A DNA stretch of 63,985 bases, counting the filler, from Psammoneis japonica (taxonomy: Eukaryota): the NCBI GenBank assembly GCA_008632985.1. It is 3 parts of 3 records of this genome, joined end to end, with 100 filler letters (N's around TTAATTAATTAA, not from the genome) between each part and the next. Parts side by side here need not be neighbours in the genome. Positions count along the whole stretch, not along the records: positions 27,721 to 55,223 come from QPGO01000412.1; 2 more parts are not named here. One strand, given 5' to 3'. Of this stretch, positions 9,891 to 63,985 are shown one piece after another. Position 1 is the stretch's first letter; every line of letters starts with the position of its first letter. The translations under genes and the position numbers were made by a program. The notes under the pieces are model-generated. The model was given only the letters and a program-made list of their open reading frames with translations, searched no databases and was not told the DNA's origin.

Positions 9891-9899
9891 GGAATTTTT

Positions 9900-15661: not shown

Positions 15662-15697
15662 TTGTGTGTGCACACCACAGAAGGCAACTAGTTCAAG

Positions 15698-16786: not shown

Positions 16787-17025
16787 CTCTGATGCCCTTG
16801 ATGAGGAGAATTGTCAGTTTGAAAAAATGATGTGCAGCAATTCTGAGGAATGACTTGCACCGCAAGAGGAGTCTTGCGCACTGCTGGACATCAGGAAGCC
16901 CGGAAAAAGGGCCAAGATGACTCACGCTAGTCCAGTTGTCGCAGCTTGTGTGAGCACCTCTGTTTTCAGGGTTGTCCAATGTGCTGACAGCCTTTGGCGT
17001 AACAGCAATCTGTTGAGAGTTGCCT

Positions 17026-17078
17026 GACATACAAAGCTCGATGATGTGAGCTTTCGCTTTCGCTTCATCAGTGTTGTC
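17026..17078 (-). ncRNA. Minimal type I hammerhead ribozyme (3' pLTR)
   Basis: Minus strand reads GACAACA-CUGAUGA-A-GC-GAAA-GC-GAAA-GCUC-acaucauc-GAGC-UU-UGUAUGUC. The catalytic core and stems I, II and III can all be drawn. Confidence 0.8.
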
Positions 17079-17484
17079 GGCTGTTTTTCGAGCTAAAAAA
17101 TTCGAAATCGGCATTTTTCTACGGCTGTCGTCGCAGCTGACGTTACAGGCGTTGAAAAAGCCGCATCAGAAAGATCCACCCGTGCGCGGTGCGCATGGTG
17201 AGTTAATCGTGTGGATCACAGATCTCGAATGCGCGCGAAGCGCGCATGAGAATGAGTGAGGCATCATCAACTCAAAAAACTCCAACGGTGTTGGAGAAAG
17301 AGCGAGTTGATGTTGCTGCTGTCAGATGTAGAAGCATGCTCTACTGCAGCAAGTGCGCAAGTGAACAAACTCAAAATGTAAAACAAAAAAACTCAAAACG
17401 GGCATAAGCCGTAGCGCCGTGGCACGGTGGGCAGCCCGTTTGAGTTTTTTACCGGAGGTGACTCGTCGCGACGGAGTCGCCTAA

Positions 17485-19410: not shown

Positions 19411-19499
19411 GAATCCATGGATTCTGACGCAGTAGCGGTCCGATTGTTTCTCGGCAATTTTGATGGGGAGCTCGGTGCGTTGGTAGAGGAGTTTCGCCT

Positions 19500-20981
19500 C
19501 TAGTTTCGCCTGTTGCTTCTCTTGCCTCTTTGCTCGCCTCTGTGCTGTCCTCCGTGATTCCCTTTTCTTTTTCCGTGGCGGTTCTTGGCTTCGTTCTTTT
19601 GTCTCTTGGCGGATGGTTTCCCATTCGTCTTCGAGGCTTGGGGTTGGCGTTTCCGCTTTCCTTTTCCTTTTTGCGTTTCGTTGTCTTTTGCTACGTCGTT
19701 CTTTCGTGCCGGTGGGGCTTCCCGACCGCCCTTGTCGTTTTTTTGCCGACGGTTTGCCTTCTTGTGGAGCTTTTTGAGGCTTGCGACTTTTTTGTCAATC
19801 TTTTTGTTGATCAACTCGTCGAGGGCGGGGGATTGAACTGTCGGTTCGTTTTCAAGAGCTGTTGCGACGAGGTCAGCTGCTTGTTCCTTCTTGCGGCGTT
19901 TCCACTTTGCCTCTAGCTTGGCGTTGACCGATTTCAATCGTTCTTCTTTGTCCAGGGCGTGTTGCAATTGCATGGTGACTTGTTCATAGAACTGTTTCAT
20001 TTCCTTGAACACTTCTTCTTTCACAACTTTCTCACCTGTTGAAAGTTCGTGGTTCACGCACTCACTTTCGAGCAGGGGGTTCAAGTTTGCTGCCAGTGCG
20101 GCCTGAGTGCGCGTGGCATCCTCTTGTGTGTGCACGTCTTCGGTGCTCTCTTGAGTTGAGGGAGGGGTGCTGTCTTGGGTGCTCTCTTGAGTTGAGGGAG
20201 GGGTGCTGTCTTCGGGACTGAAGGGTCCTTCATGTCGAAGCTGGCGTTCAACTTCCTTGATGATTTCTTTGGGAGAAGTCTCAAGGCAGTCTCTCAGGAA
20301 GCTCGATGGCAGCACGTCACACAAGTGGGGCATGAGTGGCACTCCACTGAGTTGACGCGTTGTTAGGTCTGTAGAGCCTTTGAACTCTTTTACATGGTCA
20401 ATGTAGAATTGGAAGAGAACAAGGCTAGCTTCGACCAATTCTCGTATTCGGTTTGTTTTCACAACCTCAAGTTCACGTGAGGCCATCTTGTGTGCGAGTT
20501 TGGCTGCATCCTTTTCGAAGCATGCAACCAGGTCTTTCATCTCCTGGACGAGCTCTTGGGCAGCAGCATCATCGTTGAGCCGGTCCGCATGTGTGAGGTT
20601 CACATTGAGCCTGCAACATTTGGGGATGTGTGGATTGTCATCAGTGCCGGGGAAAGCCGATAGACTTGGCTTTCTGCTCTTTACAAGCCCGCACTGAGTG
20701 ATCACACGAGTGGCTAGTGACTCGACAATGTCCTTGAATCCTGTTAGCTGCGTCTCAATCGCTTCGCGACAAGGGGCTGGTTTGTCCAACTTACGTTGGT
20801 TAGCTGCCAAGATCTGTGGCGCCGAAGGCGCCGTTGACGGCGCCGCAGGCGCCGTCATTGTCACTGCTGCTGCGGTGGCGAATCGCACGGTGCGTGCGGC
20901 TGCGTTGTTTCGTCTGTTGCGAGCAGGTGGGGTTGTCGGAGTGGACGCGCTGGCTGCAGTCATTGTTGGAAGTCTGTGCAC
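19500..20981 (-). CDS. PLE ORF1, coiled-coil with highly basic C-terminus
   Basis: 493-aa ORF directly upstream of the RT and downstream of the pLTR; K/R-rich tail; internal 36-bp duplication (DSTPPSTQEST x2). Confidence 0.65.
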   Translation of the reverse strand: MHRLPTMTAASASTPTTPPARNRRNNAAARTVRFATAAAVTMTAPAAPSTAPSAPQILAANQRKLDKPAPCREAIETQLTGFKDIVESLATRVITQCGLVKSRKPSLSAFPGTDDNPHIPKCCRLNVNLTHADRLNDDAAAQELVQEMKDLVACFEKDAAKLAHKMASRELEVVKTNRIRELVEASLVLFQFYIDHVKEFKGSTDLTTRQLSGVPLMPHLCDVLPSSFLRDCLETSPKEIIKEVERQLRHEGPFSPEDSTPPSTQESTQDSTPPSTQESTEDVHTQEDATRTQAALAANLNPLLESECVNHELSTGEKVVKEEVFKEMKQFYEQVTMQLQHALDKEERLKSVNAKLEAKWKRRKKEQAADLVATALENEPTVQSPALDELINKKIDKKVASLKKLHKKANRRQKNDKGGREAPPARKNDVAKDNETQKGKGKRKRQPQASKTNGKPSAKRQKNEAKNRHGKRKGNHGGQHRGEQRGKRSNRRN

Positions 20982-21048
20982 ACTGTTTTCGGGGTTGTCT
21001 GATGTGCTGACAGCCTTTGGCGCAACAGCAATCTATTGAGAGTTGCCT

Positions 21049-21101
21049 GACATACAAAGCTCAATGATGTGAGCTTTCGCTTTCGCTTCATCAGTGTTGT
21101 C
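21049..21101 (-). ncRNA. Minimal type I hammerhead ribozyme (5' pLTR)
   Basis: Same as 17026-17078 with one change in loop III; lies just upstream of ORF1. Confidence 0.8.
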
Positions 21102-22123
21102 GGCTGTTTTTCGAGCTAAAAAATTCGAAATCGGCATTTTTCTACGGCTGTCGTCGCAGCTGACGTTACAGGCATTGAAAAAGCCGCATCAGAAAGATCC
21201 ACCCGTGCGCGGTGCGCATGGTGAGTTAATCGTGTGGATCACAGATCTCGAATGCGCGCGAAGCGCGCATGAGAATGAGTGAGGCATCATCAACTCAAAA
21301 AACTCCAACGGTGTTGGAGAAAGAGCGAGTTGATGTTGCTGCTGTCAGACATAGAAGCATGCTCTACTGCAGCAAGTGCGCAAGTGAACAAACTCAAAAT
21401 GTGAAACAAAAAAACTCAAAACGGGCATAAGCCGTAAATGTTGTGTGGCCATCTTGAAAAAGAGTCGCTCTTTGCTTCTGACAATGAGCGTGGCACCCCA
21501 GTGGACCCAAGGACCTTGTGGCAAAAAAGATTTGGGGCATGTTTTGCAGCCTGCACATTTCACAAAGAACACTGCCAAACTGAGCTTGTGCCAATGAGAG
21601 TTGGGCTCAAGCAGTCAACTTTGAAACAGCGGAACTCTGGCAGCAGATCATGAGCGCCACTTGAACCCCAACCCAGTGCAAGCATGTCCTGGGGGGGGGG
21701 GGGGGGTGCAGTGTGCGTTGTTGTGTGCGTTGCACACATGCACAGCTGCATGTAAAATGAATTTGTGCTCCAATCGTACGTCAATCGTGGGTTCGTACGA
21801 GGACAGATCAATCACACAGAGTTGATCGGATGTCGAGAATCGCGAATGCGACTGTGCGATGATGTTGACATCTCATGTGTCAATGTCAATCGCATCCGGA
21901 CAATCTGTTGTCACGATTGCATTCTCCGAAAGGCCTTTTGTCTGTGGGAGCAGTGCAAAAGGTTTGGGCTGTTGAGAACCCGTTCAGAAAAACCCAAAAT
22001 GATCATGCAGAAATGATTCTCACAATTTTCACTTTTTGAACTTTGCTCTACTTTCATTGTTTGCACTCGTTCTTCAAGCATGGTGCATTGTGTGTGCACA
22101 CCACAGAAGGCAACTAGTTCAAG

Positions 22124-23212
22124 ATGAAGCTTTCACCTCAGGTGGCCAAGGCCAAGACTTCGTTGAGGCAGGAAAGAATTGTTCCTCAACCGTTGGAATC
22201 GAATTCCGAGCCAAAGAGCCTCAAACCGAGCCAGCATCTCAAGATGGAGCAGTGTTTTCATCCCGAGAAGAAGGACAGTCGGACCCACACGATCAACGTC
22301 GAGTGCTGCAAGAAACAGGGTGTTCCCAAGTGCATCGAATTTTTAAAGAGCTGTGATCAACTTCCAGTGGGCCAGAACATCAGCAAGCAAGCCGACAAGT
22401 TCCGTCTCATGCGCACGTTGCCACAAGGAGACGCTCTACGTGCTTTCGAGAATGCAGCGGCAAACATTGAAGACGAATCTATGGAAGGAAGCTTCAAGAA
22501 ATGCCTGCAGCACCTCACGAAACACGTGTTTCCTAAGAACGCACTTTCGGTTCAGAAACGTCATCTGCGTCACGATCTCAAGAAGCCCGAGTCAATGAAA
22601 GTGCGCGAGATTGCTGCTTGGGTCCAGGAAGTCAACGAAGACCTCAAGTTCTATCCTCCCTTTGGAAAGGATCAGAAGATCAAGGAGGACAAGCTCAAGA
22701 ACATCCTCTTCAATCTTGCACCTCGAAAGTGGCAGCACCAGTCGACCGTCCAGGGTTTCGAAATTCTGAAACATGCCTGCGACGAGTTGGCTGAGTTTTT
22801 GGAGCACCTGGAGGTCGCTGAGGATGTGTTCGACGGCATTCATGCCAAGGCTGATCCCAGCGGCAGTGCTGGATCGAAAGCCAAGAGTGGTTCCCAACGT
22901 GGTTCCAAAAATGGTCACCAACATGGTGCCGAGAAATCTCAGTCCGACAAGTGGTGCATTCCATGCGAAAAATCCACTCACAACACAGACAAGTGCTGGT
23001 CGATTAAAAGACTTGCAAAAGAACGCTGTGGGAACTGTGAACCCGACCCAAAATGGCGCCGTTCAAATGGCAATCGCACATGGTCTCATCGTGACAATGA
23101 CAACGCCACTCGCAAAGAAGAGTTGAATGCCATGGCAGTCCAAGCAGTTCAAAAAATTGCTCAAAGCGAGTTCTTCGAACAACGACAACAAGCGCAAGAG
23201 CAAAGATTGTGA
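22124..23212 (+). pseudogene. Gypsy gag (copy 2)
   Basis: CCHC knuckle; duplicate of 15698-16786. Confidence 0.8.
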
Positions 23213-23342
23213 CTCTGATGCCCTTGACGAGGAGAATTGTCAGTTTGAAAAAATGATGCGCAGCAATTCTGAGGAATGACTTGCACCGCAAGAGGAGTCT
23301 TGCGCACTGCTGGACATCAGGAAGCCCGGAAAAAGGGCCAAG

Positions 23343-24890
23343 ATGACTCATGCCAGTCCAGTTGTCGTCGCTTGTGTGAGCACCTCTCTGGGCAAAGCAA
23401 AAAACAAGCCTCTGCATGTTCTCCTCGACAGCGGAACATCGTCAACCACAATTTTGCGCAAATTCACGCGGAAACTCAGAACCAAACCATCCGCCACCAA
23501 ACTCTGGGAAACCAAAGGAGGGCTCTTTATGACTGACAGTCAATGTAAAATCCAACTCTCCTCACCCGAATTTGATGAACATGAGATGATCGAAACAACG
23601 GCACATGTTGACAATTCCTCTTCCTCTTCGAGTCGTTATGACATGATCATGGGACGTGACTCAATGTCGAGTCTTGGGACAACATTGGACTTCTCGAATG
23701 AAGAAATCAAATGGGGGGATGCGACTGCTCCCATGAAGAATGTTGGTGCACTCTTCGATGCCGATGTTTTTAAGTTGATTGCCGATCACATTGAGGAATC
23801 TCATGCAGTGATTGGCCTTGATGACAGGGTCAATCGGATCCTTGACTCAGACTGTCACGCCGCAAACCTCAATGATGTGACAGCAGCAGCCACTCATCTA
23901 ACTCCTGAAGAGCAGAAGCAGCTAAACTTCCTCTTAAAAAGATTTGAAAACCTTTTCGATGGTTCTCCAGGCAAATGGACCGGGAAACCAGTGGATTTAA
24001 AGTTGAAATTGGGCGCGAGTCCGCATCATGCTAAACCATTTCCCGTGCCACAAGCCTTAGAGGCGACTGCTCGCAAGGAGGTTGAAAGACTGTGCAAGTT
24101 AAAAATCTCAAGAAAAAAACTGTGTGTGGATCTCATTGGGCCACACAAAATGCGTCGTAAGGGAAAGAAAGAACCCCTGGTCCTGAAATGTTTGACAATG
24201 ATTGATCCAGCAACCGGATGGTTTGAAGTTGTGGAAATCCCAAATGAGGAATCCATGGCTGTGGCTGGACTGCTAGAACGAACGTGGTTGAGTGGATGTC
24301 CTTGGCCATCGTCAATTGCACATGACCGTGGCAGTGAGTTCATCGGACACCAATTCAAAGACATGGTGCAAGAGGATTGTGGCATTAAAGTCAAGCCCAC
24401 AACTGCACGAAATCCACAAGCAAACGCAATTGTTGAACGCGTACATCAAGTACTCGGAAATATGATCCGCACACTTGATTTGCAACATACACCTCTAGAT
24501 GCTGAGGATCCCTTCGCTGGAATATTATCAGCAGTAGCTTTTGCTGTACGTTCTACGTATCATACTACTACGCAAGCTACACCTGGACAATTGGTCTTTA
24601 ACAGAGACATGATATTTAACGTCCAACATATCGCAGACTGGAAATTAATCCAGCAGCGAAAACAAGAAATCATAAATAAAAATAACGCTCGGGAGAATGC
24701 TCGACGCACTCATTATACGTACAGAGTAGGAGAGAAGATACTACTCGAAAAAGACTCGCAGAAATTAGAACAGCCCTACGTTGGACCGTATGTAATAATA
24801 ACGGTACACACTAATGGCACAGTACAGATCAAACGCGGTGACGTCATTGACACTGTCAACATTCGTCGAATAATGCCGTTTAACGACTGA
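23343..24890 (+). pseudogene. Gypsy pol remnant: aspartic protease + start of RT joined to integrase core
   Basis: LLDSG...DMIMGRD (protease); KPFPVP..EVERL (RT start) jumps to LCVDLIGP...DRGSEF...NPQANAIVER (D,D,E) and YVGPY (GPY/F). Confidence 0.9.
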
Positions 24891-25737
24891 CTCTAATGTG
24901 CAATTAGGGAGGCGAATGCAATATGCGTTGTTATGTACGTTATATATATGTATATGTATATATAAAATAAATTTATATTCCAATCGTACGTCAATCGTGG
25001 GTTCGTACGAGGACAGATCAATCACACAGAGTTGATCGGATGTCGAGAATCGCGAATGCGACTGTACGATGATGTTGACATCTTATGTGTCAATGTCAAT
25101 CGTATCCGGACAATCTGTTGTCACGATCGTATTCTCCGAAAGGCCTTTTGTCTGTAGGAGCAGTGCAAAAGGTTCAGGCTGTTGAGAGCCCGTTCGGAAA
25201 AACCAAAATGATCACGCAGAAATGATTCTCACAATTTTCACTTTTTGAACTTCGTTCTACTTTCGTTTACACTCATTCTTCGAGCACAGTGCAGGGATGC
25301 CAAGGCAACAATTTGGACAATGCATGAATCTGTGCGGTTGGCAGGTGGGTTGCCCTCTGTCACTCTCTGACTGCTCTCCTCTTGTGTCTGCTGGCACGCT
25401 CTTGGATGAGCTCTCTGGTTGGTTGTGGTCCAGGCCATGAGCACCACCAGACCTCAAACCAGGTCCTTGGAACCCAGAGTCAGAAACTCTGGCCAGCTGC
25501 CAGAGCAGAGAGTTGCAAAGGGTGGGAGTTGCAGGCCACAAGTGAAACATTGCTCTCAACTCACAGCGCAACACAGCACTGACAAAAGAAATGAAGAGTG
25601 AGCTTGCTGTGGCTCCAGCAGTGCTTGTAGACTCACGCACTGCATCTGCATGGCAAAAGCAAAGAAAAGCAGATCATGGAAAACAACCCTCCACTTGTGC
25701 AGGGGAAGGCACAGACCATTGTCTCGCGTTGGTCTCT

Positions 25738-27720: not shown

Positions 27721-27880
27721 ACCCACCATGGCGCTGCGCGAGGAACCTTCCGATTCACCCGACGCCGATGCCCCGTCTCATGGCAAAGATGATGAATGCG
27801 AACATGTTTTCACAAATGGATTGGGGATCACCGATGAGAACGAAAAGGCAAAACTCCGTGTCTAAAGCTTTGCCAATGAG

Positions 27881-40574: not shown

Positions 40575-41560
40575 TGACTCTGTCATCCGAGAAATGGCCG
40601 CATGCCTCACCCAACAGCCCGGAATGGGAGCAAGTGGAGGGAGCTGGTTTTGGTTTCTTTTCTGATTGACTGTCTCCAAACACAAGATTTCCCGAGAGCC
40701 TTTGTTTCCACGCTCGCTGCTTTCCGCCGCTCTGTCATCCGAGAAACGGCCGCATGCCTCACCCAACAGCCCGGAATGGGAGCAAGTGGAGGGAGCTGGT
40801 TTTCGTTTCTTTTCTGATTGACTGTCTCCAAACACAAGACTTCCCGAGAGCCTTCATTTCCACGCTCGCTTCTTTCCGCCGCTCTGTCATCCGAGAAACG
40901 GCCACACACCTCACCCAACAGCCCGGAATGGGAGCAAGTGGAGGGAGTGGCTTTTTTTGTCTCTCTGTGATTGGCTTTGCGCGCAGCAACAACTTTTCCC
41001 ACAAGACTTCCCGAGAGCCTTCATTTCCACGCTCGCTGCTTTCCGCCGCTCTGTCGTCCGAGAAACGGCCACACACCTCACCCAACAGCCCGGAACGGGA
41101 GCAAGTGGAGGGAGTGGCTTTTTTCGTCTGTCTGTGATTGGCTTTGCGCACAGCAACAACTTTTCCCACAAGAATTCCCGAGAGCCTTCATTTCCACGCT
41201 CGCTGCTTTCCGCCGCTCTGTCATCCAAGAAACGGCCACACACCTCACCCAACAGCCCGGAACGGGAGCAAGTGGAGGGAGTGGCTTTTTTCGTCTCTCT
41301 GTGATTGGCTTTGCACGCAGCAACGACTTTTCCTGCGTGCTTTGTCGTCCAAGTGGCGACCACAAACCTCACCCAACAGCCCGGAATGGGAGCAAGTGGA
41401 GGGAGTGGTTTTTCGCATCTTTGTGATTGGCTCACCGTGCAGACACGACTTTCCTTTTCGAGACTTGTCATCCGGGAGACGCCTCACCCAACAGACCCCA
41501 ATGGGGAGCAAGTGGAGGGAGCGCCTGTTCGTGTCCTTGTGATTGACTCCCCCAACACCC
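40575..41560. repeat. Tandem array, 7 variable units (~152,152,167,167,124,115 bp spacing)
   Basis: Core ctcacccaacagcccggaa(t/c)gggagcaagtggaggga at ~40606, 40758, 40910, 41077, 41244, 41368, 41483. Confidence 0.9.
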
Positions 41561-41719
41561 TTTGTCACCCGAGAAACTGCCATGCACCCTCACCCTTTGC
41601 ATCTCGTCGTTGACACTTCCTGTCAAGATTGACCCCCCATTCCTGGTTTGTTCTGTAGACCGCTGTTTATTCACATCTCTCTCTCTCTTCGTTGATGTCA
41701 CCAATCTCACGGCCTCGCA

Positions 41720-44700
41720 ATGGTTGCCGTCCAATGCTGCCCCTTCGCTGGCTTGGTTTGCCTCGGTTGCAACAACAAGGCCGGTTGGGACAGAGATTTG
41801 GTCCACAGTGTCAAAAGACACACAGAAAAATTTTGCGGTGCCTGCAGGTTGCCATCCAAAGTCAGCCGATGCCAGCTTCTTGTTAAAGGCGCCCTTGCCG
41901 ACCTCAAGTCACTTGCCAAGACTGTCGCGTTTCTCTCCGACGAACAGTTCCACACACATTTGGTGAACACCTGCACCGTGCCCGTGAGTGGTGCGGTGCA
42001 TTGTCCCGACTGCAAGGCGATTGGGCCATCTGACAGAAAAATGAAAACACTTCACCAAGCAGGTAGAAAAAGGGGTTGCAGCCGACGATGCCAATGCGTC
42101 CAATGTTGCAAGTCTAAGGTTTTGGACTCTCACATGATTCCAAAACGTTTTGCACCAGCCGACACGGCTCCCTGGTTCAAGCGTTGCGTCCTTTGTGCAA
42201 GAGAGCGGGGAATCGGTTTCCCTTCATCTCTTGTGCCAACGACAACCGTTCCACACGAACCACCCACGGCGCCTGTTTCTTCTACTTGTCGCCCAACTTG
42301 GCACTTTTCTCAGCAGTCTGTGTCACCCTGCATTTTCCAGTCATTCGAAAACGGCATCATGTCACTGCCCTGCCATGACGAAGTGCACATCAACAATTTT
42401 GTGTTGGAACTCGAGCGACTCACCCTCCCCTGCGTTGCGCAACCTGAGCTCATGCAGTTCGCCACTGAAGTTTGCGGCTCGATGGCTCTCCGTCACTTCG
42501 ACGGATCATTCACTGCGATGGCCCGTTGTTTCGTGGAAATGACAACTGAGCCAAACAGGTCATGGGAGAAAAACATGATCGATGCGGACTGCCGATTCAT
42601 GGAGCGTGCATTCGATCAACTCGAATCTGTGAACCCCTCATTGTTGATTGATGCACAGAAGGTTGGAAAGTGTGACAACAACGCGTCTTGCAGGAGGACC
42701 AACGTTGCCTTGAAAGACTTCTTGGATGGACTTGAGCGAGTTGTCGATGAAGATGGAGCTGTGACCCACCTGCCGACTGATGAAGACAAAGATCTCTTGT
42801 TCGACCAGGTCTCCTCTCTTGCTGAAAATTTCGACACAGCTGGTGCCATGCCAAGGAAGCTGGGAAAGTTGTCCGTTGACACTCGAAAACGACATGCCTC
42901 CCATTTTTGTGGGATGTTGCTCTTCCTTGCGAGAAGCGCCTCTGAGTTTATGGACCAGACAAGCACGTCCATGATTTCCCAATGCGCTGAGCTGTTCCAC
43001 GCGGGTTCCTGCGAAACAACGGAAGGTCAGGAATTGGCTCTTGGCGCCATTGCGTCTCTCCTTCTGACGTGTTTGCAGGTCGACTCAGAGGTCAGTTACA
43101 GCAGCATGGTCATCAAGTCACATTCCATGCCCGCTGTGTGTTCAATGGCCAGGTCCATCAATGTTTGTCTCGGCAAGGACAAGATTTGTTGTTTCCGTCT
43201 AGAAAGTCCCAAAAAAACTGCATGGCATTTGCTCGGCTTTGCTGCACACGCTGAGGGCAGGATGCGTTGCATGCATGGTGCATGCTTCCTTGTCCGGTGA
43301 TTCGTCTCTGCAGAGGTGTTCACCGGACGCTTCACGTTTGGTGCGCTCGTGTCCCATCATGGAGCTGGCAAACATCGGCCGCCTGTGCAAGACATGCGAA
43401 AGGTTTACATCTCGAGGCAGCGAGAAAGCGCAGCACAAAGTCATTGATGGTGCGGACTCATTCGTCATCAAACACGCAACAGAGTCTTCTTCGTCCGTCA
43501 CAATGGCCCAGCCCCCAATCAAAACTGCTCTGCACAAGTCCTGTTTGGAGTTGGAGGAGAAGATGAAGCGATTGCTTGTTCCAGCGCTTTCTGGGAAGGA
43601 GGTTGAGGTGTTTGACCGCGATGGTGCAAACCTGGACAAAATCAAGCTAGCAGGCGAATTCCTTGATGCCGTTTTGCGTGGTTTGTTCAGCAATTTGGCC
43701 AGTTGCTGTGACTGCGGTGCCTGCCGGTTGTGCACCGAGACTGTCGAGCAGATGAATCGCGTCAGTGGTCGGGCCCCCCAAGGAATCTGAGCCATGCGCA
43801 AGCACCATGGCTGCCTGTTTCTTCTTCCGTCTGCCCAATGGCAAGGTTGCCAGTTTGGATTCATTTCAGCTTGCATTGCTTTTTGCGGAATCTCTTCTCG
43901 ACAACAGCTCCCTCCGGCAGCTCTACGAGGAGGAAGACTTCAAGATCAAATCCTTGTTTGGATCTCAATTTTTTTTTGCCATGCGCGGCTCTGGTCGGCC
44001 ATGGGAAGTTGTCATGTTTCAGTCAGGCGTGACCAACGACACCCAGACCAGCCCGTTCCGGCCCTCAGTTTTGGCCGGCTGGGGCAGGGGTGGTGAGATG
44101 CTCAGCAAACTGTGCTGCAGTTTCGTTCATGGGGAAAGTTGGTGGAGATGGAGTAGACACCGGGTTCTTGGGCCTGCCGGAGATTTCGGCTCAGTTGTTG
44201 ATGGTCTTCCTTTCCATTCATTGTTCTGCTGTTGCAATCCATCTCGGCCGTGAACTCGGTCTTGACATTGGACGCAAACATCTGCTGCAATTCTTCAAGG
44301 TGCTGGAGTTGACTGCTGGGGGGAAGCCACACTGCAAGCCGTGGCCTGACCTCGAGGACACATTTTGTCGCCGTCTCAAGCGGCTTTTTTGTCTGGAGCG
44401 TGGTTCGATGACACTCGGTTCCTTCCGACAGGTTTTCTGTGCTGTTTCTAAGCGCCAAGACGAAATGATGGAAGAAATCGGCCATGTCAGGCAGGGCCAA
44501 AAAGAAACTCTCCCAACATGTGTCCCGCGTGCAAGCAGGGGGCTTCAACCACACTGTCAGCACCCACTTTCGCAACTGCAATTTCTCTGTCCAAATGGGC
44601 AATCAATTGATCGACCCAGATCAGCGCTCGTTCAACGACCAAATGGATGATTTCCACCACGACTGCATTGGAGCTTCACTCCTCGTTCCTGTTCGATCTT

Positions 44701-47671
44701 TGGAGCAATCCAATCACATGGGTCAAGATCAATGGAGGCGACCCCATTTGATGACAGACTCTCAGTGTCTTGGATTCCAGAGAGCCCATGCTGCCATCCA
44801 TTGCGAAATGAAATCTCCGATTCAGCGCATGACACTAACTGAGCCGGTCTCAATGATGCGCGATGCTCTCATCGTAGCCCCTTGTGGCTCGGGGAAGACT
44901 GGCACAATTGCCGCATCAAGCACGCATGCAAGGTTCAGCCATCTTTCAAGGCTGGGCAGAGAGGGCATGCAGCAATGCTTCGAACAGCACCAAGTGGACT
45001 CTGATGTTTTGGATGACCCCGCCGTGCAAGATTTTCTGGAACACTGTGCGACTGACGAATTCCCACCTCCTCCCCACGGTTTTGCCCTTTTGTGTTGTCC
45101 CTCATCGTGCCGCGATGGATGACACAATCTCCAATTTAAACAAAATGCAGTTTGTCACAGCCACTGGTTGGCGTGCTGCGGATGAAATGGAGGCCTTGCT
45201 GCAGCGTTCCGCATTCGCTGGTGATTTAAACTCGGAAAGCGTGGCAGGTTTCGACGTCCTGGTTCCAACAGTGGCGAAGGCTTGCTCCGACGAAGCGCGT
45301 CGATTTGTCGAAGATTGTTGCCGCGCAAAAGTGCTTTGCGCTGTTGTCACGGATGAACCACACATGTTTGTGATGGAGTTGGAGCACATGACATGCCTTG
45401 TCACATTCGTCAACCTCATGTCCAGATTCTCGCACGTGCGCCACCCGGGTGCCAAGGTTTCATCTTAGCGGCAGCAGCCCTGCCTGCTTGTCCACGAGCA
45501 TCGCGACAGTGACAGGATCCTCCTTTGGGAGCGCACCACCAACATGGTTGAACAGTTGTACGATCGGCCACTCTCGCTGCACGGGGCACGACGATCCCGA
45601 AGAGATTCTCGCGGAATGTGCTCAGAAGAGAGGCATTTGGCGACCCAGTGACACCGTCCCATCAAATGTCGCACATGCTGTCTGCAAGGTTCCATCCACC
45701 AATGACCACCGGCATGCTGAGTGCGCCCTGGCACGGTTGAAGCCTTTGCTTGCACAAAAGAACGACTCTGGGTGCCAACCAGACAAGATCCTCATTGTCT
45801 GCAAAACAAAAAACTTGGCACGTCGCGTTCACCTGGTTTTCGGTTCATCCTCTGTCATGCTGCTCGGCAGGGACAGAGACACCCCCGATGACCAGATGCA
45901 GGTCTTTCAAGAGAAATGGATCAATGGCAGCGTGCAGGTTGGTGTCGGCACATCAGTTCTTGCCCAGTCCATCAACCAGGGGAGGTGCAACCTCGTTGTT
46001 TGCCTGGACATGTTGCACAACGCTGTGCTCTGCATGCAGGCATCCGCTCGTGGCGGGCACCGCGGCCAGCCCTCGCTTAGCTTGTTTCTCTGCCGAGAGC
46101 AACAACACAGGCGATGCCTGTCGCCGAAGCCTTTTGACTTCAACGAGCTGCGCATGAGCGGCGTTGACATCGACGACCCCTCATTGAGCCATTCTCTTGG
46201 CACTGAGTCGCTGAGTGGCTTCATCAAAGCCGACGTTTCCCAACACATTTGCAGACGTGTCCACCTCAAGAGAGAGATGGACAAGGCTTTTGACAAATCG
46301 GACGCACATGTGACCAGATTTGAATCTTGTGCAGATCGCGACTGGTGCTGCAATCTTTGTTCTGCCAAGGTGGTTGATGTCATGTCTGTGATGGGTTTTC
46401 ATGGTTACGAAGACCAAGATGCAGACACAATGGATGTTGAATCCGATCCCTTCTTGCCCTGCACAGCCACCCCCATCGCCCTCGATGATGTTGCGTCACT
46501 TGACGGCGATGACGCAAGCACGACGGAGGTGGCACCAAGTCCCTTCTCTCCATCCACCGCCTCTTCCGATGACAGATCATCACCCCCTGATGAATGTCCG
46601 CCAGCCGTCACTCCTCATGATCACTTTTTGACTGCCAACGGGGCTGACTTTGAGGCCGAATTGTGCAATCTTGTTGACTCCGCATCGACAAACAACTCTC
46701 TCCTTGCACCTGACACTGCCAACACAGATGGCTTGCCAGGAGGGGAGGAAACGGCAGCCATGGCTGTTGCTTTGTCCGAATCAAACGGCTCAAACTCTCC
46801 TGGCAATTGTTTTTCCAAGTTGCCTGGCACCAATTTCCCCAGGGGCCGATCCCGTTCTCGGGTTGTTTCAAAAATCAAGCGGCGACAAAAGCCCGATCTT
46901 TTTACCCAGATGCCACAAGAAACCCAGCCCAGGACTCGTTCCTGCAGCCGCTCGAGGGATCGCACAGATCGTGCGATGAGACAAGTTCCGTTGTTTTCCA
47001 CCCGTGGCAACGCGCCTTCCAACAGAGCTGCGGCAGATCCCGCTGTTGCACGAGACACTTTTCCCAAACACAGCTGCCCCGTGCGCGCATTTGTCACCGG
47101 ATCTGACAGACGGCTGCTCCACAGCTGTCCCTGGCACTTTCAAATGGGCCTTCCTCCAGTTCCACGCCATCGAGGGCTGCTTGCAGAGAATCCCTTTGGC
47201 AGCCCCGAGTGCCGGGTTTCCTTCTGCAAGGCACTCAGAGGATGCACAGCCAAATCATTCTGTTTTAAGTGCGGCAACGATGGCATTTCCTGCTCATCGA
47301 AAGCCTTCGATATCAACACCTGCCGCTTTGGTGGTCTCCAAAGCGGCCAAGGTTGTTGTTGTTTTTGCGGCATTTGTCATGACGTGGGGGATGCACATGT
47401 GCGAGAAGCTTGTCTTGGAAATCGCCTTTGGGGGCTTGTTGTGTGGGCTTTCAGGAGTCCCTCCGGGCACAAGCTGGTTGCTGACAGGTGGATCCGCTCT
47501 GGAGCGAAAGGACTCCTTGGGTTTCCGTTTCCTGATCTGTGTTTGTTTTGTGACGTTTCGCCAGAAAAATGGAAGAAGGCTCTGAAGTTTCTCGTTGACA
47601 ATCGTCACGTTAACTGCTGTTTTTGGAGGTGCGTCCTCCATGTCCTCCACGAGCACTCCTTTCGCATTTGA
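41720..47671 (+). pseudogene. Telomere-linked-helicase-like (RecQ family) gene, ~2000 codons, frameshifted
   Basis: N-terminal LVCLGC...VKRH zinc-finger-like segment; motif I LIVAPCGSGKT, II VVTDEPH, III LSGS, IV ILIVCKTK, V VGTSVLAQSIN, VI QASARGGHRGQ; RecQ Zn module CRRVHL...CCNLC. Confidence 0.75.
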
Positions 47672-48264
47672 GCATTGGACTTGTTCATTTCGCGCAAACT
47701 GCTGCACCTGGGACGCCGCCCCACCCCTTCTCTGCCAGCGTTCTCTTTTTGTTTGTTTTTGTTGTCAATGTTAAATGCACTTTTCGAGAACACGCATTTC
47801 CTCTAACACTTGTTCTGCAAGAGCCCCGCCACTGCCGCGTCACATTCTCGCGCGCACTGCGTCACGTTCTCGCGCGTTTTGGGCGCGCGGCAACAACCAC
47901 ACAGCACACACAAACAACACCGCCAAGACGCAGTTGCACACACACACCGTCGAACTGCATCCTGCGCTGCTGCCGACACCCCACCCCTTCTCGACTTGTT
48001 TGCAATTGACGCTGCATTTGTGAGTGCAATGATCTTTGTGGAACTGTTGGTCTCCTGCGATGCGGACTGGCAGCAATGATGGCATTGTTGCCCCATCTAA
48101 TTGGCTGTTCCCCTTTTTTTGTCCACTGCAATTTCCATTCAAATGGGCAATTCCCGCATCTGTTCGGATTTTTTTGTGCAGATTGCAGCAACATGTGCGC
48201 CAGACGCCCCACCACCGTGACGCACCACAAGTTTCTTCCCAGCTGCTTTTTGCACCCCGGTTGT

Positions 48265-49050
48265 CTTGTTGCTGCATCTCTGCATCTTCTGACAATTGTG
48301 CAGCAACGGACGAGTGGGACTGCCAGTCCGTCGCCCAGCAACATTCCGCCAATCGGTTTTCAACAACAAGACCTGGAGAACTGGCTGGGGCACCCTCGTT
48401 GTGTTGTGCAGTTTGACGAAAAAAGGCGCGGCTGATCTTGGTTGCGTTGATGGACGGCGCAAGCGCATTCTGCGTGTTGACATTGGCAACAACATGTTCT
48501 CCCCAGCTGCATGTCGGCGGCTTTGCTCTTGTCTGTGTCTGTCTCGCTGCTGCATCTCTGCGTCTTTTGACAATTGCACAGCAACGGACGAGTGGGACTG
48601 CCAGTCCGTCACCCAGTGACATTCCGCTGATCGGTTTTCAATGACAAGACCTCGAGAACTGGCTGGGGCACCCTCGTTGTGTTGTGCAGTTTGACGAAAA
48701 AAGGCGCGGCTGATCTTGGTTGCGTTGACAGACGGCGCAAGCGCATTCTGCTTGTTGACATTGGCAACAATGTGTTCTCCCCAGCTGCACATTGGCGGCT
48801 TTTGCTCTCGTCTGTGTCTGTCTCGCTGCTGCGTCTCTGCGTCTTCTGACAATTGCACAGCAACGGACGAGTGGGACTGCCAGTCCATCGCCCAGTGACA
48901 TTCCGCCAATCGGTTTTCAACAATGAGACCTGGAGAGCTGGCTGGGGCACCCTCGTTGTGTTGTGCAGTTTGACGAAAAAAAGGCGCGGTTGTTCTCGGT
49001 TTCGTTGATGGACGGCGCAAGTGCATCTGCTTGTTGACATTGGTGATGAC
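48265..49050. repeat. Three ~278-bp tandem units
   Basis: gcaacggacgagtgggactgccagtcc at 48303, 48581, 48860. Confidence 0.9.
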
Positions 49051-49112
49051 ACATTCTCCCAAGTCACACATCGGCGGCTCTGCTTCGTCGTTGTTGTCTC
49101 GTTGCCATTGGC

Positions 49113-52489: not shown

Positions 52490-53612
52490 CTGGTCCGAAC
52501 ATGAGATTTCTAGAAAAAGAGTGAAGTGAGCCCCTGATTGTGTGAACCCAACCCACAAGTGCTGGCAGATGGCCTTGGCTGTCTCCTGTGGATGGCAGAG
52601 GACACTTTGACGACAAAGGTTGAGCACCAAAAGGCCCATCTTGTGCAGTTGAGGCCCCACCTCACTTTGTTTCCGCCAGGTTTGGACATGAAATTTCTAG
52701 AGTTAGAGCAAAACGAGCCCATGATTGGGTGAGCCCAGCCCAAAGGTGCCGGCAGATGGCCTTGGCTGTCTCCAGTGCGTGCCAAGGGACGCTTTGACAA
52801 CCAAGGTTGAGCACCACAAAGCCAATCTCGTGCAGTGACAGCCCACTTCAATTTGTTTTCACCAGGGCGGCTTGTGAAATTTCCAGATTCAGGTGAAATG
52901 AGCCCCTGATTTGGTGAACCCAACCCATGGCTGCTGGCAGATGACCATGGCTGTCTTTTGTGGGTGCCAGAGGACACTTTGACAACCAAGGTTGAGCGCA
53001 ACAAGGCCCATCTTGCGCAGTTGAGGCCCCACTTCACTTTGTTTCCACCAGGGCCAGACATGAGATTTCTAGAAAAAGAGTTGGATGAGCCCCTGATTGG
53101 GTGAACCCAACCCACAAGTGCCAGCAGAGGGCCTTGGCTGTCTCCAGTGGGTGCCAGGGGACACTTTGGGAGCCAAGGTTGAGTGTGACAAGGCCCTTCT
53201 TGTGCAGTTGAGGCCCCACTTCACTTTGTTTCCACCAGGGCCAGCAATGAGATTTCTAGAAAATGAGTGAAGTGAGCCCCTGATTGGGCGACCCCAACCC
53301 ACAAGTGCAGGCAGAGGGCCATGGCTGTCTCCAGTGGGTGCCAGGGGACACTTTGACAGCCAAGGATGATCGCAACAAGGCCCATCTTGTGCAGTTGAGG
53401 CACCACTTCACTTTGTTTCCACCAGGTTTGGACATGAAATTTCTAGAGTTAGAGTGAAATGAGCCCATGATTGGGTGAACCCAACCCGCAAGTGCAGGCA
53501 GAGGGCACTGGTTGTCTCCAGTGGGAGCCAGAGCACACTTTGACAACAAAGGTTGGGCACAACAAGGCCCGTCTTGTGCAGTTTCAGGCCCTGCTTCCCT
53601 TTGTTTCCGCCA
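52490..53612. repeat. Subtelomeric satellite, six ~187-bp units
   Basis: atga(g/a)atttctaga...gagccc at ~52501, 52688, 52875 (diverged), 53060, 53248, 53434. Confidence 0.92.
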
Positions 53613-53688
53613 GGGTCAGGGTTGGGGTCAGGGTTGGGGTTGGGGTTGGGGTTGGGGTTGGGGTCAGGGCCAGGGTTGGGGTTGGGGT
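53611..53688 (+). repeat. Degenerate internal telomeric tract
   Basis: Hexamers TTGGGG, TCAGGG, CCAGGG; no intact TTAGGG. Confidence 0.85.
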
Positions 53689-54016
53689 CGGTGTGCCGCA
53701 TCGTGGCATTCGAACTCGGATGCGAAACTCTGGCTCGCATGTTGCTGTTGAAAGGATGGAGTCACTCGAGGCAGGATGGTGGGAAACCTTGCAAGTTGGA
53801 GTGCAGAAGAGCACCCGCGATCGAACAAATGACATCGGTGGATTTTTCTGAATCAGAGACAGCAACAAACATGATGGCGAAGGTGCCCCTCTTGTTTGTT
53901 GTGTTGAACGATCCCAATCTGTTGGATCCCAGCTCCAGCGAGCCCTTGGTGAACCACGTTCAACCCCAAAGCTTTGCCAATGAGTTGATGAAATTTCTTC
54001 AACTCCCACACCTTGG

Positions 54017-54096
54017 TCAGGGTTGGGGTTGGGGTTGGGGCCAGGGTCAGGGTCAGGGTTGGGGCTGGGGTTGGGGTTCAGGGTTGGGGGTTGGGG
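54017..54096 (+). repeat. Second degenerate internal telomeric tract
   Basis: Hexamers TCAGGG, TTGGGG, CCAGGG, CTGGGG. Confidence 0.85.
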
Positions 54097-54658
54097 TGAC
54101 AGAAAATGAAGGCAAATGGCAAGAATTCAAACAACAACTCCTTGCTGCTGTCTAAACAGCAGATGAGTCTCCGCTCAGAGACCGCTGCAGGAGCCGAAAG
54201 ACGTGCAAGTCGGTGTGATCGGGCTGCTGTTGTTGTTCTTGTGAGCCTTGTGGCTCGAAAGCAAACCACATCGCACGTGAACGCGCGGAACTGGAGCACA
54301 CAAAACTGTGCGCGGCAAACTAAACAGCGCGCGACACTTCGCGCGCATCCAAATCCTGTTCAAATCCTGTCACTCCCCAGTTTGCTTGAGGAGCCACAGA
54401 AACAGATTCGACTTCGGATGGAATGAAGTTCCAGAACATGAGGGGGCGGAGAAGGTCCCAGATTTGGGAGTAACCCCAATGCTTGCTGAGAATGTCAGCA
54501 GGGTTGCGGGAGCCTTCGATGAAGTGGAGCTCAAGGCAACCAGAGGCAATTGCCTCACGCACACGGTGGAACGACAGTGCGGTGTGTCGCTTGTGTAACT
54601 TGGAGTGCGGGATGGTGGCACTGTCTACAACCGACTTGTTGTCACCGAACATGTAACT
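54097..54658 (-). mobile_element. 3' end of Ty1/Copia element: RNase H C-terminus, PPT and 276-bp 3' LTR (54097-54372), truncated by the telomere
   Basis: FGDNKSV...KRH...FHRVRE...NPADILSK (Copia RNase H); PPT ggggag; LTR with inverted termini TGACAG...CTGTCA. Confidence 0.88.
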
Positions 54659-54659
54659 N

Positions 54660-55223
54660 GTTAGGGTTAGGGTTAGGTTAGGGTTAGGGTTAGGGTTAGG
54701 GTTAGGTTAGGGTTAGGGTTAGGGTTAGGGTAGGGTTAGGGTTAGGGTTAGGGTTAGGGTTAGGGTTAGGTTAGGGTTAGGGTTAGGGTTAGGGTTAGGG
54801 TAGGGTTAGGGTTAGGGTTAGGTTAGGGTTAGGGTTAGGGTTAGGGTTAGGGTTAGGGTTAGGGTAGGGTTAGGGTTAGGGTTAGGGTTAGGGTTAGGGT
54901 TAGGGTTAGGGGTTAGGTTAGGGTTAGGGTTAGGGTTAGGTTAGGGTTAGGGTTAGGGTTAGGGTTAGGGTTAGGGTTAGGGTTAGGTTAGGGTTAGGGT
55001 TAGGTTAGGGTTAGGGTTAGGGTTAGGGTTAGGTTAGGGTTAGGGTTAGGGTTAGGGTTAGGGTTAGGGTTAGGGTTAGGGTTAGGTTAGTTAGGGTTAG
55101 GGTTAGGGTTAGGGTTAGGGTTAGGGTTAGGGTTAGGGTTAGGGTTAGGTTAGGGTTAGGGTTAGGGTTAGGGTTAGGGTTAGGGTTAGGGTTAGGGTTA
55201 GGGTTAGGGTTAGGTTAGGTTAG
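54660..55223 (+). repeat. Telomeric (TTAGGG)n array
   Basis: ~560 bp of TTAGGG with occasional 5-mer variants, ending at the contig linker. Confidence 0.98.
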
Positions 55224-60100: not shown

Positions 60101-61661
60101 TCATGCAGCAACATCATTAGCATGGGCGTTGCCAACAACATGGCTTTGTCGGTTGTCTTCTTCCCACAGTAAGCGTTCGAAAGTCTCCTCTGGGGAACGC
60201 AGCAACACGTCTTCACTCAAGTGCTTTGTCGCGGCATTCAAAATCAATTCAGAGATGGGAGGTTTGCCAGACAGCGAGACGCCCTCTCGCAAGTACTTCT
60301 TCGGAAGTGAAGCAATCTCATCCAATTCGATGCGATATCGCTTCGAGTTGGGTTCTCCAGCAAACAACTGACAAACCGCTTTGACAATGAATCGCCGGAT
60401 TTTTGCAGGATCCCATAGATTTTCTTCCTCATCGGCATGTCGACCGTATTCTTGAAGTATTTCTAGCCGATTCAAATGTCTGCAGGAGTCATCCTTGTAG
60501 AGTAGACGGTCCGCCATTGCAAAATTCCAAGGCTGAGCGGCAAACGAACGCCCGACCATTACCCCTAGCAAACCGGGACATTCGTCAAATTCCGTCTGAG
60601 CATCAGTCAAGCTACCGATACCACCATTGACCGAAAACGTAAGCTCTGGATAGTCTTGTACAAGTCGTCTGACTAGTTCGCGTTTCAGAGGTGGTATTTT
60701 TCGATTGTCCGCAGGCGAGAAAGATTTCTGAAGAACGGCAATACGTGCGTGCACAGAAAAGTCGGTCACGACATTGTTCGCCGCTACTCGTTCAATGAAG
60801 CTGCAAAGTTTGGAATACTCCATCTCAGGATCAATGCTGTCGTAAGCCTTTCGAGTGAAAGACTGGTCATTTGACGTTCCAATTCTACATTTGACCGTCA
60901 CTGGCAATTTCCCGCCGGTACCGTCATGTAAAGCAGAAGTGAGTTCTGCTACCAGATCTGGATCGTCCATCAGAGCAGCTCCAAAGCATCCTTTTCCGGC
61001 TACCTTTGGAGAAGGGCAGCCGCAGTTCAGGTTGATGGCGGTGTAGTCGCACCATCCTCGGTCAGTCATGTCCATCACAGTCTGGGCTGCTTCATACATT
61101 TGCTGAGGATCTGAACCACCTAATTGCAACACGGAAGCGCCCTCAAGCGGTTGTATTAGCCCTTGGCCAAGGTAACGCCTCATAAATTGATCATCATAGC
61201 CCTTTCGTGCTTGTTCTGGGGTTGCTGTTGGATTCTGGCTTATGAATTCGTCCTCTTTGTCACGACGCTCGTGAACCAAGGCATTTGCTGCAACCATCTC
61301 GGTATAGAGCAAGGTGCGGTTCGAAATGAGCCTTACCAAATGCCGAAAATGCCGGTCTGTGTACTCCATCATCTATTCATCAAAGGACATGCAAAAGAAG
61401 AAAGTGGAGTTACACAATGCGTGAGACGCATGAGACAAAAAAAGAAGAAAGTTAGAGCGAACATACCGGTGCGAGAGACAAGCGGCTTGCTTCCATCAGT
61501 TCTTTGTATTTTGTCTCCCTCGTGGCTGCATTGTCCTCACTGGACTCTGTCGATGTTGTGACCTGGTACAGGTTTCGCCGAGAAAGAGCTTTCCTTTGTG
61601 TAAGGGAAGCAAAAGCAGGTACACGGCCAGCCGCCGACCCTCTCATTTGCAAACCGTACAT
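60101..61661 (-). CDS. dusA: tRNA-dihydrouridine synthase, DusA-type; intron 61373-61466
   Basis: Spliced SLAP|MMEYTDRHFR, LLYTEM, QLGG, NLNCGCPS, VKCRIG, HAR, NGGI, GVMVGR; start codon uncertain (61661 or 61646). Confidence 0.9.
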
Positions 61662-62375: not shown

Positions 62376-63145
62376 CTAGAAGCCAGCGTTAAAATCAATC
62401 GGATAGCCAGCCAACGAGTTGATGACATAAGGATCATGCGTGGGGAGCATTTCGTGGACCATTAATCCCAGAATCCCCATCATTGCCGCACGGCCATTGT
62501 TAAGCTCAATGCCCCGCTTACGTTCTTGCTCTTCAGGAGAAAAGGTGTCCCAACCGAGATCGAAGGCCTCGTTCCTAAAGTCTCCCACAAGCTCGCTACC
62601 AACGAGGTCTTTCATCACTGCCAACTCGAGAAGACCGCAGAAGAGAAAGATCTGCAAGAGCCCAGCCGGCGGGACCTTGGAAAGCGCCGCAATTCCAGCT
62701 TTGGAGAAGAAAACAAATCAGACGCATGTTTTAGTAACTGGCATAGTATAGGTGAAGCTTTCAAAAGAGGAATGAATGGAGCACATATTGACTATTCGAT
62801 ATTAGAGAACAGCTGCAAAACCGACTTACTTGGGATAGAGTCAAACGAGGTGCCATGGTAATCAATGTCACCGGGAAGACGAACTCCGCCGGTCGTGACG
62901 ATATGTCCGAGCACAGCGAGCATCGAAACACGACCATGCTTCAGCTCAACATAGCGCAGGCGGTTGAAACGAGCGTCATCGGCATCATCCAGCAGGCCGA
63001 GGGGGTCGAAGAATCCAAGTGGCGGTTGCGCGCCCAGCTCATTTTCAAAGGACATCTTGGTAGACACAGAGGTGCCCACTCCCGTCTGAGACGGTGCGAA
63101 TGCCGCAGTGGCGGTAGCAAAGAGCGGTAGGATGGAAAGTCTCAT
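62376..63145 (-). CDS. Lhcf: Fucoxanthin chlorophyll a/c light-harvesting protein; intron 62699-62829
   Basis: Signal peptide + AAFAP, FENELGAQPPLGFFDPLG, ELKHGRVSML, ELNNGRAAMMGILG. Confidence 0.95.
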
Positions 63146-63985
63146 GGTGCCTGGCTTTGTTTTGCTCTGAAGTGACCGGCCGAGTTGCACTGCAACACAA
63201 GATCTCTTGCGAGCCCTGTCCTTGGCGAGCCGCCGCGAAAAGATCCAAAAGATTTTCGAGAATAACCCGGATGTTGGATGCTGGATGTTGAATGTCAAAT
63301 AAAATGGACGACGACTCATGACTGACCTTGAACCTCTCGTACAAACTATTCTGCTTTGATTGCTTTTTCGCTCTTCTTGTGTTCACTGTTGATTGTCGCA
63401 CGGTTGTATCTGACTTGTGTTGCATGAATGGGAGATGCAACCAGCGGAGCCATGGATAGAGCGACGGAGAATGTGGTGACGATGGAAAACGCTGATAGTC
63501 TGAGAGCAGAACACGAGAAGCAACGTATGAATCTCACCTCAATCCATCAGAAAGCGTTGGCTCGTCTTTTTCCTCCTTTGGACTCGACGAAAACCGGTGC
63601 AAGAAAGATTTCCAACAAATCAAAGAATTGCAAAAGAAGCGAAACAAGCTGAGGGATCGTCGAATTTTCCTTTTCTCAGAAATCAAAAGGCTTGAAGCCA
63701 CAGAGATTTGCTCCAGTGTGGCGTTTGATCTGACTGGGGTGCGAGGGAGCTCGAATCTACCTTTTGTACGTTCCTACTCTAGTAGTCGCCCTTCGCAATT
63801 AGATGATAACGCGAAGGACGATTTCTATCAAGATCTAGCAACAAGATGAAGAATATCCGTTCCAAACGAAGAGTTGTTGGTGCTCACTGCGTTTCCGGGA
63901 TATCCCTTTTGCCCCGTAAGGATGACAGCACTTTTGGTGTTCGTTTCGACATTGCTGTCAAAGGACGCTACAGTACCGGTCACGT

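Follow-up and report, generated by a model that had tools for sequence, protein, structure and literature searches.

The window considered here is a 63,985-nucleotide stretch of the Psammoneis japonica genome (GenBank assembly GCA_008632985.1), made up of parts of three records joined by filler, of which positions 27,721 to 55,223 come from QPGO01000412.1, and our subject is a very long gene of TLH (telomere-linked helicase) type that lies in this middle part. TLH genes at the ends of fungal chromosomes have been known for more than 20 years. The gene in the window occupies 41720..47671 on the plus strand, from an ATG at 41720–41722 to a TGA at 47669–47671, which are exactly the limits that an earlier note on this DNA had drawn, and its product of ~1,980 codons is collinear with residues 53–2067 of a 2078-residue homologue (P0004), in seven frame pieces. 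Along this product follow two C2H2-type zinc motifs, a long and mostly helical region, a predicted tyrosine-recombinase-fold domain, a RecQ-like superfamily 2 (SF2) helicase core with its zinc motif, and a tail rich in Cys and His.

As had been proposed, this very long helicase gene lies near a telomere and points at it, with 6,989 bp between its stop codon and a terminal TTAGGG array (54660..55223, plus strand) in which TRF counts 96.8 copies of GTTAGG. When searched with (TTAGGG)3 at no more than one mismatch, the array gives 63 matches, as against none in 100 shuffles, and because the G-rich strand is the plus strand, the chromosome end lies to the right of the gene. The adjoining terminal telomere repeats by which TLH genes are recognized are thus present here, with gene and array in the same orientation. 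Directly before the array stands a lone “n” (54659), where contiguity from left to right is the assembly’s word only, and directly after it a contig spacer (55224–55323; an N-run, ttaattaattaa and a second N-run) joins this array-ending contig to the next. Two degenerate telomere-like GGGTTG/GGGTCA blocks (53611–53699 and 54015–54100, plus strand), both oriented like the terminal array, support a chromosome end nearby. Satellite arrays are found on both sides of the gene (none assigned to a strand): a 152/167-bp tandem array of ~7 core copies (40577..41552) stops ~170 bp before the ATG, and a 278-bp repeat in three copies (48262..49105) and a 187-bp repeat in six (52495..53615) follow downstream. 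We note also that TTAGG or TAGGG variants recur in the telomere array every ~29 nt (TRF likewise gives a period of 29), and that these reflect either true variation of the repeat or miscalled bases.

Homologues were sought with the last open reading frame (ORF) of the gene (P0001) against 1.84 billion representative proteins, which yielded 25 relatives at E ≤ 1e-3 and seven at E ≤ 1e-30, several of them intact at 1,800–2,200 residues; the N-terminal ORF alone also has a relative, at 34% identity (E 3e-63). All of these relatives are metagenome or run-assembly sequences. The word-indexed homologue search returned no longer relatives of the helicase ORF, comparison of the family alignment with proteins of 3,862–5,000 residues returned no relative, and among viral contigs 44 pattern matches contained no relatives either. 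In metagenome contigs, a single homologous locus was found (L001; 12.6 kb, GC 44%), which carries an intact 1,943-codon ORF and in which no second copy of the gene was found. Tandem and dispersed short repeats (an 83-bp unit, four times) occupy 9553–9896 and 11120–11730 of L001, ~1.1 kb downstream of the homologous gene, and resemble the satellite-rich setting in the window. Seven of the homologues are on contigs of 6.4–7.0 kb, which could be the size of a repeat unit or that of a transcript. Finally, P0006, a 5,520-residue protein from an insect genome assembly record, shows 68 distinct segments of similarity to the helicase ORF, to be read as TLH-like fragments in repeat or as DNA foreign to the insect in its assembly.

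The helicase core contains, on the plus strand, motif I (APCGSGKT, 44877..44900), motif II in the form D-E-x-H (here DEPH, 45349..45363), a Helicase_C domain (45776..46060, Pfam E 7e-06) with the motif VI region at 46037–46069, and a RecQ-type zinc-binding-like motif, CRRxxL ... WCCxxC (46250..46360), the family form of which, CRRxxL...WCCDxC, is RecQ-zinc-like. At the level of single sequences little more emerges: Pfam recognizes Helicase_C alone, in one of the nine pieces of the window, and in a search of solved structures the helicase ORF matches weakly (best E 0.048), with no match for the two upstream pieces. Across 12 homologues at E ≤ 0.001, Pfam finds Helicase_C in 11, DEAD in four and no other family; when the threshold is relaxed to E ≤ 1 for ten members, RecQ_Zn_bind appears in one (E 0.0017), and RQC and HRDC in none. 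A profile built from ten homologues and compared with all solved chains has its two best matches in RecQ proteins, that of Escherichia coli (2.2e-13) and another (2.3e-12), followed by a Vasa-type DEAD-box protein (2e-11), then eIF4A-III, DDX19B, BLM and FANCM, with RECQ4, WRN and RECQ1 lower in the ranking. The alignment of this profile with RecQ takes in the stretch ahead of motif I as well as D-E-A-H and motif VI, and its matches to WRN reach over the CRR...C part of the zinc motif; in addition, IMG labels three of the homologue clusters “RecQ”. Thus, the designation as RecQ in the earlier note holds for the core, which has motifs I, II (DExH) and VI and which may fairly be called RecQ-like, but the likeness is at the profile level only, and full membership of the RecQ family would go beyond what these sequences support.

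Upstream of this core, the earlier note had pointed to three short motifs, GRPWE (starting at 43993), SFRQ (starting at 44420) and GFNHTVSTHFRNC (44541–44579), which lie in three different frames; these prove to be the frames of the homologue alignment, such that the motifs belong to one protein. They fall in a conserved domain with approximate limits of 43800..44700 (plus strand), as transferred from the modeled L001 homologue described below. Four residues of this domain are invariant in all 14 intact homologues aligned: the Arg of RGxxRxxE (43996..43998), which is Arg I-like; a Lys ~45 residues further on, in the loop after the second strand (44135..44137), which is like the Lys of the β-hairpin; the Arg of FRQ at the start of a long helix (44426..44428; family form (F/L/W)R(Q/M/K)), which is Arg II-like; and the His of (N/G)H (44550..44552), nine residues before the position of the presumed nucleophile Tyr. 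At this last position, the copy in the window has TGC (Cys, 44577..44579), for which the earlier note had supposed an ancestral Tyr codon, and a Tyr is indeed found there in 12 of the 14 homologues, the other two having one His and one Cys. In three further distinct and more remote proteins, each beginning within the domain (P0020, P0024 and P0028), (N/G)H-x8-Y is kept 110–120 residues before Walker A, which brings the Tyr to 15 of 17 distinct proteins all told. Both the spacing of nine from His to Tyr and the order R...K...R...H...Y appear to fit the canonical catalytic sets.

To obtain a structure for this domain, residues 640–1110 of the intact L001 homologue were modeled from an alignment of 14 sequences (pLDDT 79.5, pTM 0.79), and the model was compared with 48,161 representative chains using VIA-align. 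Ranks 1–17 and 19–23 in the resulting list (22 of the first 23) are tyrosine recombinases, type IB topoisomerases or Ndc10, which has the tyrosine recombinase (YR) fold, and the remaining one, at rank 18, is QRICH1, which derives from a Crypton recombinase. Archaeal XerA leads with Z 9.9 (root-mean-square deviation 3.4, 168 residues aligned), followed by XerD and XerH (both Z 8.1), the Brujita integrase (Z 7.7), IntI (Z 7.2), Leishmania topoisomerase I (Z 7.0), bacterial topoisomerase IB and Cre (both Z 6.7), Variola topoisomerase (Z 6.6), human topoisomerase I (Z 6.5), QRICH1 (Z 5.7), Ndc10 (Z 5.5) and Flp (Z 5.3), with TelK at rank 43 (Z 4.2). A Z value below 8 in VIA-align may reflect a common arrangement; here values of 8 or more are reached at the head of the list, which is dominated by one superfamily. 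With the same model Foldseek returns nothing at E ≤ 0.001, and the weak rows at its top include XerH, human topoisomerase I and, with a probability of up to 0.8, Cre. In this model a long helix is followed by a short one that opens with the first Arg, the Lys lies in a loop past the second strand and the second Arg heads a long helix, a placement that probably matches that in the canonical fold. The proposal that the region upstream of the helicase has a YR or type IB topoisomerase fold is therefore borne out by the prediction for the modeled intact homologue, and neither of two findings that would have contradicted the earlier note, intact homologues without the Tyr or without a YR fold, was encountered.

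These data bear on two readings that would do away with catalysis. On the first, a generic helicase gene would contain the motifs by coincidence, for which one could cite that each of them is short and that Pfam finds no recombinase here, but conservation in 14 homologues and the dominance of one superfamily in the fold list leave this barely credible. The second is that the domain has the recombinase fold and serves as a non-catalytic DNA-binding module, domesticated in the manner of Ndc10 and QRICH1, that tethers the helicase to chromosome ends. Ndc10 and QRICH1 are themselves among the fold matches (Z 5.1–5.7), three family members including the copy in the window have Cys or His at the position of the Tyr, and the family has no sequence match to active recombinase families; on the other hand, the retention of R, K, R and H in all 14 homologues and of Tyr in 12, at ~20–25% identity, is hard to explain without catalysis, and we regard a purely tethering role as improbable.

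The state of the window’s own copy has to be judged separately from that of its family, and turns in large part on its reading frame. The stop-to-stop ORFs of the gene run through frames 1, 2, 0, 1, 2, 0 and 1, and alignment of three intact homologues onto the window by tblastn gives one collinear gene with six frame changes, each of them +1, near 43220, 43770, 44130, 44490, 45095 and 45418–45452. All six shift sites are in or beside a homopolymer run, and none of the gene pieces contains an in-frame stop over the ~1,980 codons. To examine the shifts we used read contigs from one public run (X1) of the same organism, in which 96% of the sampled words are present and which is possibly the assembly’s own sample, and hence independent as data while coming from the same organism. 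Aligned to 41600–47700, these contigs cover 41600–44573 with no mismatched letters, and none extends past 44660. One base fewer than in the assembly is found in the read contigs at site 1 (an A7 run, 43211..43217), site 3 (a G4 run, 44131..44134) and site 4 (a G3 run, 44494..44496), whereas at site 2 (a G3C6 run, 43771..43779) the extra base is in the assembly and the read contig alike, the contig that spans it (43033–43936) differing from the assembly at 43211 only. Outside the coverage of the read contigs are site 5 (within T4-G-C3-T4, 45079..45093) and site 6 (45418..45463, containing a C3G3 run), the latter of which measures 46 nt, compared to 27 in the homologues, and looks like a small partial duplication with a net insertion of 19 nt. 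All six sites are given on the plus strand.

Three of the four covered sites thus lack the extra base and one keeps it. Because one base is absent at 43211, 44131 and 44494 from contigs that are otherwise free of mismatches, the assembly has over-called a base at no fewer than three of the six sites, and the premise of the earlier note that this is a mutated copy, to be rebuilt from less mutated ones, does not hold for at least these three. The shift at site 2 is either real or an error common to both data sets. Two further explanations were tried and set aside: an intron at site 2, as the sole fitting GT...AG span is 31 nt long and the alignment with the homologues continues codon by codon, and programmed +1 frameshifting as a general cause, as three of the sites vanish in the read contigs. 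Frameshifting does not affect every gene in the window, since SHQ1 (12825–14444, minus strand) has both of its domains in one ORF. We observe in addition that the X1 unitigs break every 200–900 nt, which hints at near-identical variants or copies, and that the last of them stops at 44573, 4 nt short of the Cys codon at 44577–44579, where a variant is possible.

The window’s copy differs at 5 of the 68 columns that are invariant in ten intact homologues, while a leave-one-out control among these ten gives 1–19 differences in 69–87 columns, such that, judged from the alignment, the overall constraint looks normal. Among the changes are a family-invariant Arg in motif VI that has become His, and another lost invariant Arg that lies inside frameshift site 6. 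On account of the Cys in place of Tyr, the His in motif VI and the doubly supported frameshift, this copy has probably either lost its function recently or become a variant that does not cleave. A stronger form of this view would make it a pseudogene that does nothing at present, irrespective of the family's role, in keeping with the frameshift at 43771–43779 in both assembly and read contigs, with the changes at the Tyr and the motif VI Arg, and with the apparent 19-nt net insertion at site 6; we find this possible and yet rather doubtful, given that the read contigs reveal assembly errors at three of the four frameshift sites they cover, that ~1,980 codons pass without an in-frame stop, and that invariant residues are kept at a normal rate. 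The recombinase-helicase fusion of the earlier note is upheld in its architecture, with a predicted recombinase-fold domain and a RecQ-like helicase in one gene.

Beyond these two domains, the ends of the protein bear on its relation to TLH proteins. A first C2H2-type motif close to the N-terminus, C-x2-C-x11-H-x4-H (41759..41821, plus strand), fits the published TLH pattern, and a second CxxC...H motif (42002..42055, plus strand), whose CxxC (C91 and C94 of P0004) hardly varies within the family, has Cys and not His as its last ligand. At the other end is a conserved Cys/His-rich domain (CxWH, CFKCG, CxxCG...H; 47072..47647, plus strand). In 10.1101/2024.02.27.582403, fungal TLH proteins and those of the choanoflagellate Monosiga are described as having two N-terminal C2H2 motifs (printed as Cx2-3Cx8-14Hx3-5H and Cx2-5Cx11-16Hx4-5H) and RecQ motifs, with a “TLH domain” of ~250 residues just upstream of the helicase, and in some cases C-terminal C2H2 motifs; their function is stated there as undetermined. 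The same layout is reported for the TLH of Botrytis in 10.1101/2022.03.07.483234, where one strain has 14 subtelomeric copies and two further strains lack them. In the position of the TLH domain, directly before the helicase, the protein in the window has its conserved domain of ~300 residues, and its layout agrees with that published for fungal and choanoflagellate TLH proteins; the earlier note had likened the gene to the TLH genes of Magnaporthe, Ustilago and S. pombe. Either of the printed C2H2 patterns was found N-terminally in 4 of 15 homologues scanned (P0011, P0013, P0018 and P0032), several close relatives being N-terminally short. The N-terminal 500 residues of the window’s protein give a poor model (pLDDT 66.5, pTM 0.42) with a zinc-finger-like ββα start, for which Foldseek found no meaningful match.

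Language-model look-alikes, which are leads and not tests, point to fungi as well. For a full-length homologue they are fungal DEAD+Helicase_C clusters (0.97–0.98), one of which has PF12013 OrsD in 61% of its members, and for the recombinase-fold part alone they are unnamed fungal clusters (0.90), with a bacterial tyrosine recombinase cluster at rank 20 (0.84).

Taking these observations together, we tentatively favor the reading, at somewhat less than even confidence, that this is a TLH-type gene with a recombinase-fold domain whose family constitutes a self-propagating chromosome-end element. In such an element, DNA would be bound by the zinc motifs together with the recombinase-fold domain, and cut and rejoined through a 3′-phosphotyrosine link, while the helicase fused to them would open the joint or shift it by branch migration; the gene block would as a result be copied or moved between chromosome ends. 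A number of observations weigh against this proposal. With respect to chemistry, the family has no His at the HxxR position and the copy in the window has no Tyr; with respect to sequence, Phage_integrase is found by Pfam in none of ten members even at E ≤ 1, and hhalign comparisons of the family profile with Cre, lambda Int and HP1 Int give probabilities below 1%. With respect to structure, the Z values are moderate, at most 9.9, the stretch of the model that contains the His and Tyr (391–408) has pLDDT below 50, and the modeled homologue is not the window’s own protein, being ~25% identical to the window’s close relatives. What suggests kinship with fungal TLH is language-model similarity, no telomere repeat turns up in L001 in the 2.6 kb before its gene or the 4.2 kb after it, the 7-kb contigs of the homologues are possibly transcripts rather than repeat units, and the frameshift at 43771–43779 is present in both data sets. 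As to mobility, neither a second copy nor element ends were found: terminal repeats flanking the gene were found neither in the window nor in L001, which share no common flanks.

The main rival to a self-propagating element is a host enzyme of chromosome-end maintenance, in which a topoisomerase IB-like swivel or strand-passage partner of the RecQ-like helicase would dissolve telomeric recombination or replication intermediates, as a one-polypeptide counterpart of the RecQ-Top3 or reverse gyrase pairs. The missing His of HxxR, which type IB topoisomerases also lack, would follow naturally from this, as would the topoisomerases IB at Z 6.4–7.0, the RecQ-like core and the position adjoining a telomere; the Borrelia telomere resolvase ResT is reported likewise to join this chemistry with ATP-dependent unwinding. 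Recombinases nevertheless stand above topoisomerases in the fold search, the reported variation in presence and copy number of fungal TLH between strains fits a selfish element better, and the absence of Tyr and the frameshift imply that the gene is dispensable here. We therefore consider a host enzyme unlikely, if less so than a mere tether.

Were the family a self-propagating element, its recombinase-fold domain would suggest a route by which blocks of TLH genes spread among telomeres. An extension of this proposal, which we think rather unlikely, is that the “TLH domain” of TLH proteins at large, in this algal family as in fungi and choanoflagellates, would act as a catalytic module of the tyrosine-recombinase or topoisomerase IB type, and that TLH genes would form a widespread and so far unrecognized class of recombinase-helicase elements that move by themselves between chromosome ends. 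In the accessible portions of 10.1101/2024.02.27.582403 and 10.1101/2022.03.07.483234, the domain before the TLH helicase is given neither fold nor function; a recombinase/topoisomerase IB fold with a conserved R-K-R-H-Y set would offer it a concrete and testable chemistry, and the TLH layout would extend to a photosynthetic protist and to uncharacterized environmental proteins of ~2,000 residues. A literature search for “TLH domain” returned these two papers and one unrelated one. The terms “telomere-linked helicase” and “tyrosine recombinase” were not found together in any paper (papers under subscription being outside reach), nor was a recombinase-RecQ fusion at chromosome ends or a report of a TLH in diatoms. 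What would be new here is a TLH-type gene in a new lineage and, as far as a model of moderate strength allows, the assignment of a fold and a catalytic set to the unexplained domain of TLH.

Elsewhere in the window, three repeats (15013–15570, 21436–21996 and 24907–25206) are 98–99% identical and ~6.4 kb apart, and beside them an ORF (23280–24887) encodes an rve integrase core of retroviral type (E 4.5e-07); together, the repeats across 15013–25206 and this ORF are probably the remains of a retroelement. On the contig after the spacer are genes for a dihydrouridine synthase (Dus; 60104–61372, minus strand) and a chlorophyll-binding protein (62795–63382, minus strand), and the window’s genes fit a photosynthetic eukaryote.

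Among known systems, the closest in organization are the TLH genes of fungi (Magnaporthe, Ustilago, Schizosaccharomyces pombe tlh1/2, Fusarium and Botrytis) and of Monosiga brevicollis, which are alike in subtelomeric position and in their very long ORF, and which by their published descriptions show similar N-terminal C2H2 motifs, a domain of ~250–300 residues before the helicase, RecQ-like motifs and C-terminal Cys/His motifs. The protein in the window differs in its longer N-terminal extension, with ~700 residues before the recombinase-fold domain, and is likened to these proteins by layout, not by sequence. With the tyrosine recombinases (Xer, Cre, lambda Int and Flp) and the Crypton-type YR transposons, the predicted domain appears to share its fold (Z 9.9–4.6), whereas the family lacks the His of HxxR, has no Pfam or hhalign match to them and is fused to a helicase; Cryptons are not known to encode a helicase. 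Type IB topoisomerases, which use an R-K-R-H-Y pentad without His II, and the telomere resolvases TelK and ResT belong to the same fold superfamily (topoisomerases IB at Z 6.4–7.0, TelK at 4.2), but rank below Xer, and the chromosome end in the window has ordinary TTAGGG repeats and no hairpin telomere. The RecQ helicases (E. coli RecQ, BLM, WRN, RECQ1 and RECQ4) are matched best by the family profile among solved structures, over the motif 0/I region, DExH, motif VI and a CRR...C..C zinc-like motif; DEAD-box helicases score almost equally well with this profile (2e-11). Finally, the helicase of the yeast Y′ element (YRF1, or Y′-Help1) is encoded in a subtelomeric unit of ~6.7 kb with one long SF2 helicase, and this unit resembles in size, by description, the 6.4–7.0-kb contigs of seven of the homologues. 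The Y′ element helicase is mentioned in PMC4522978.

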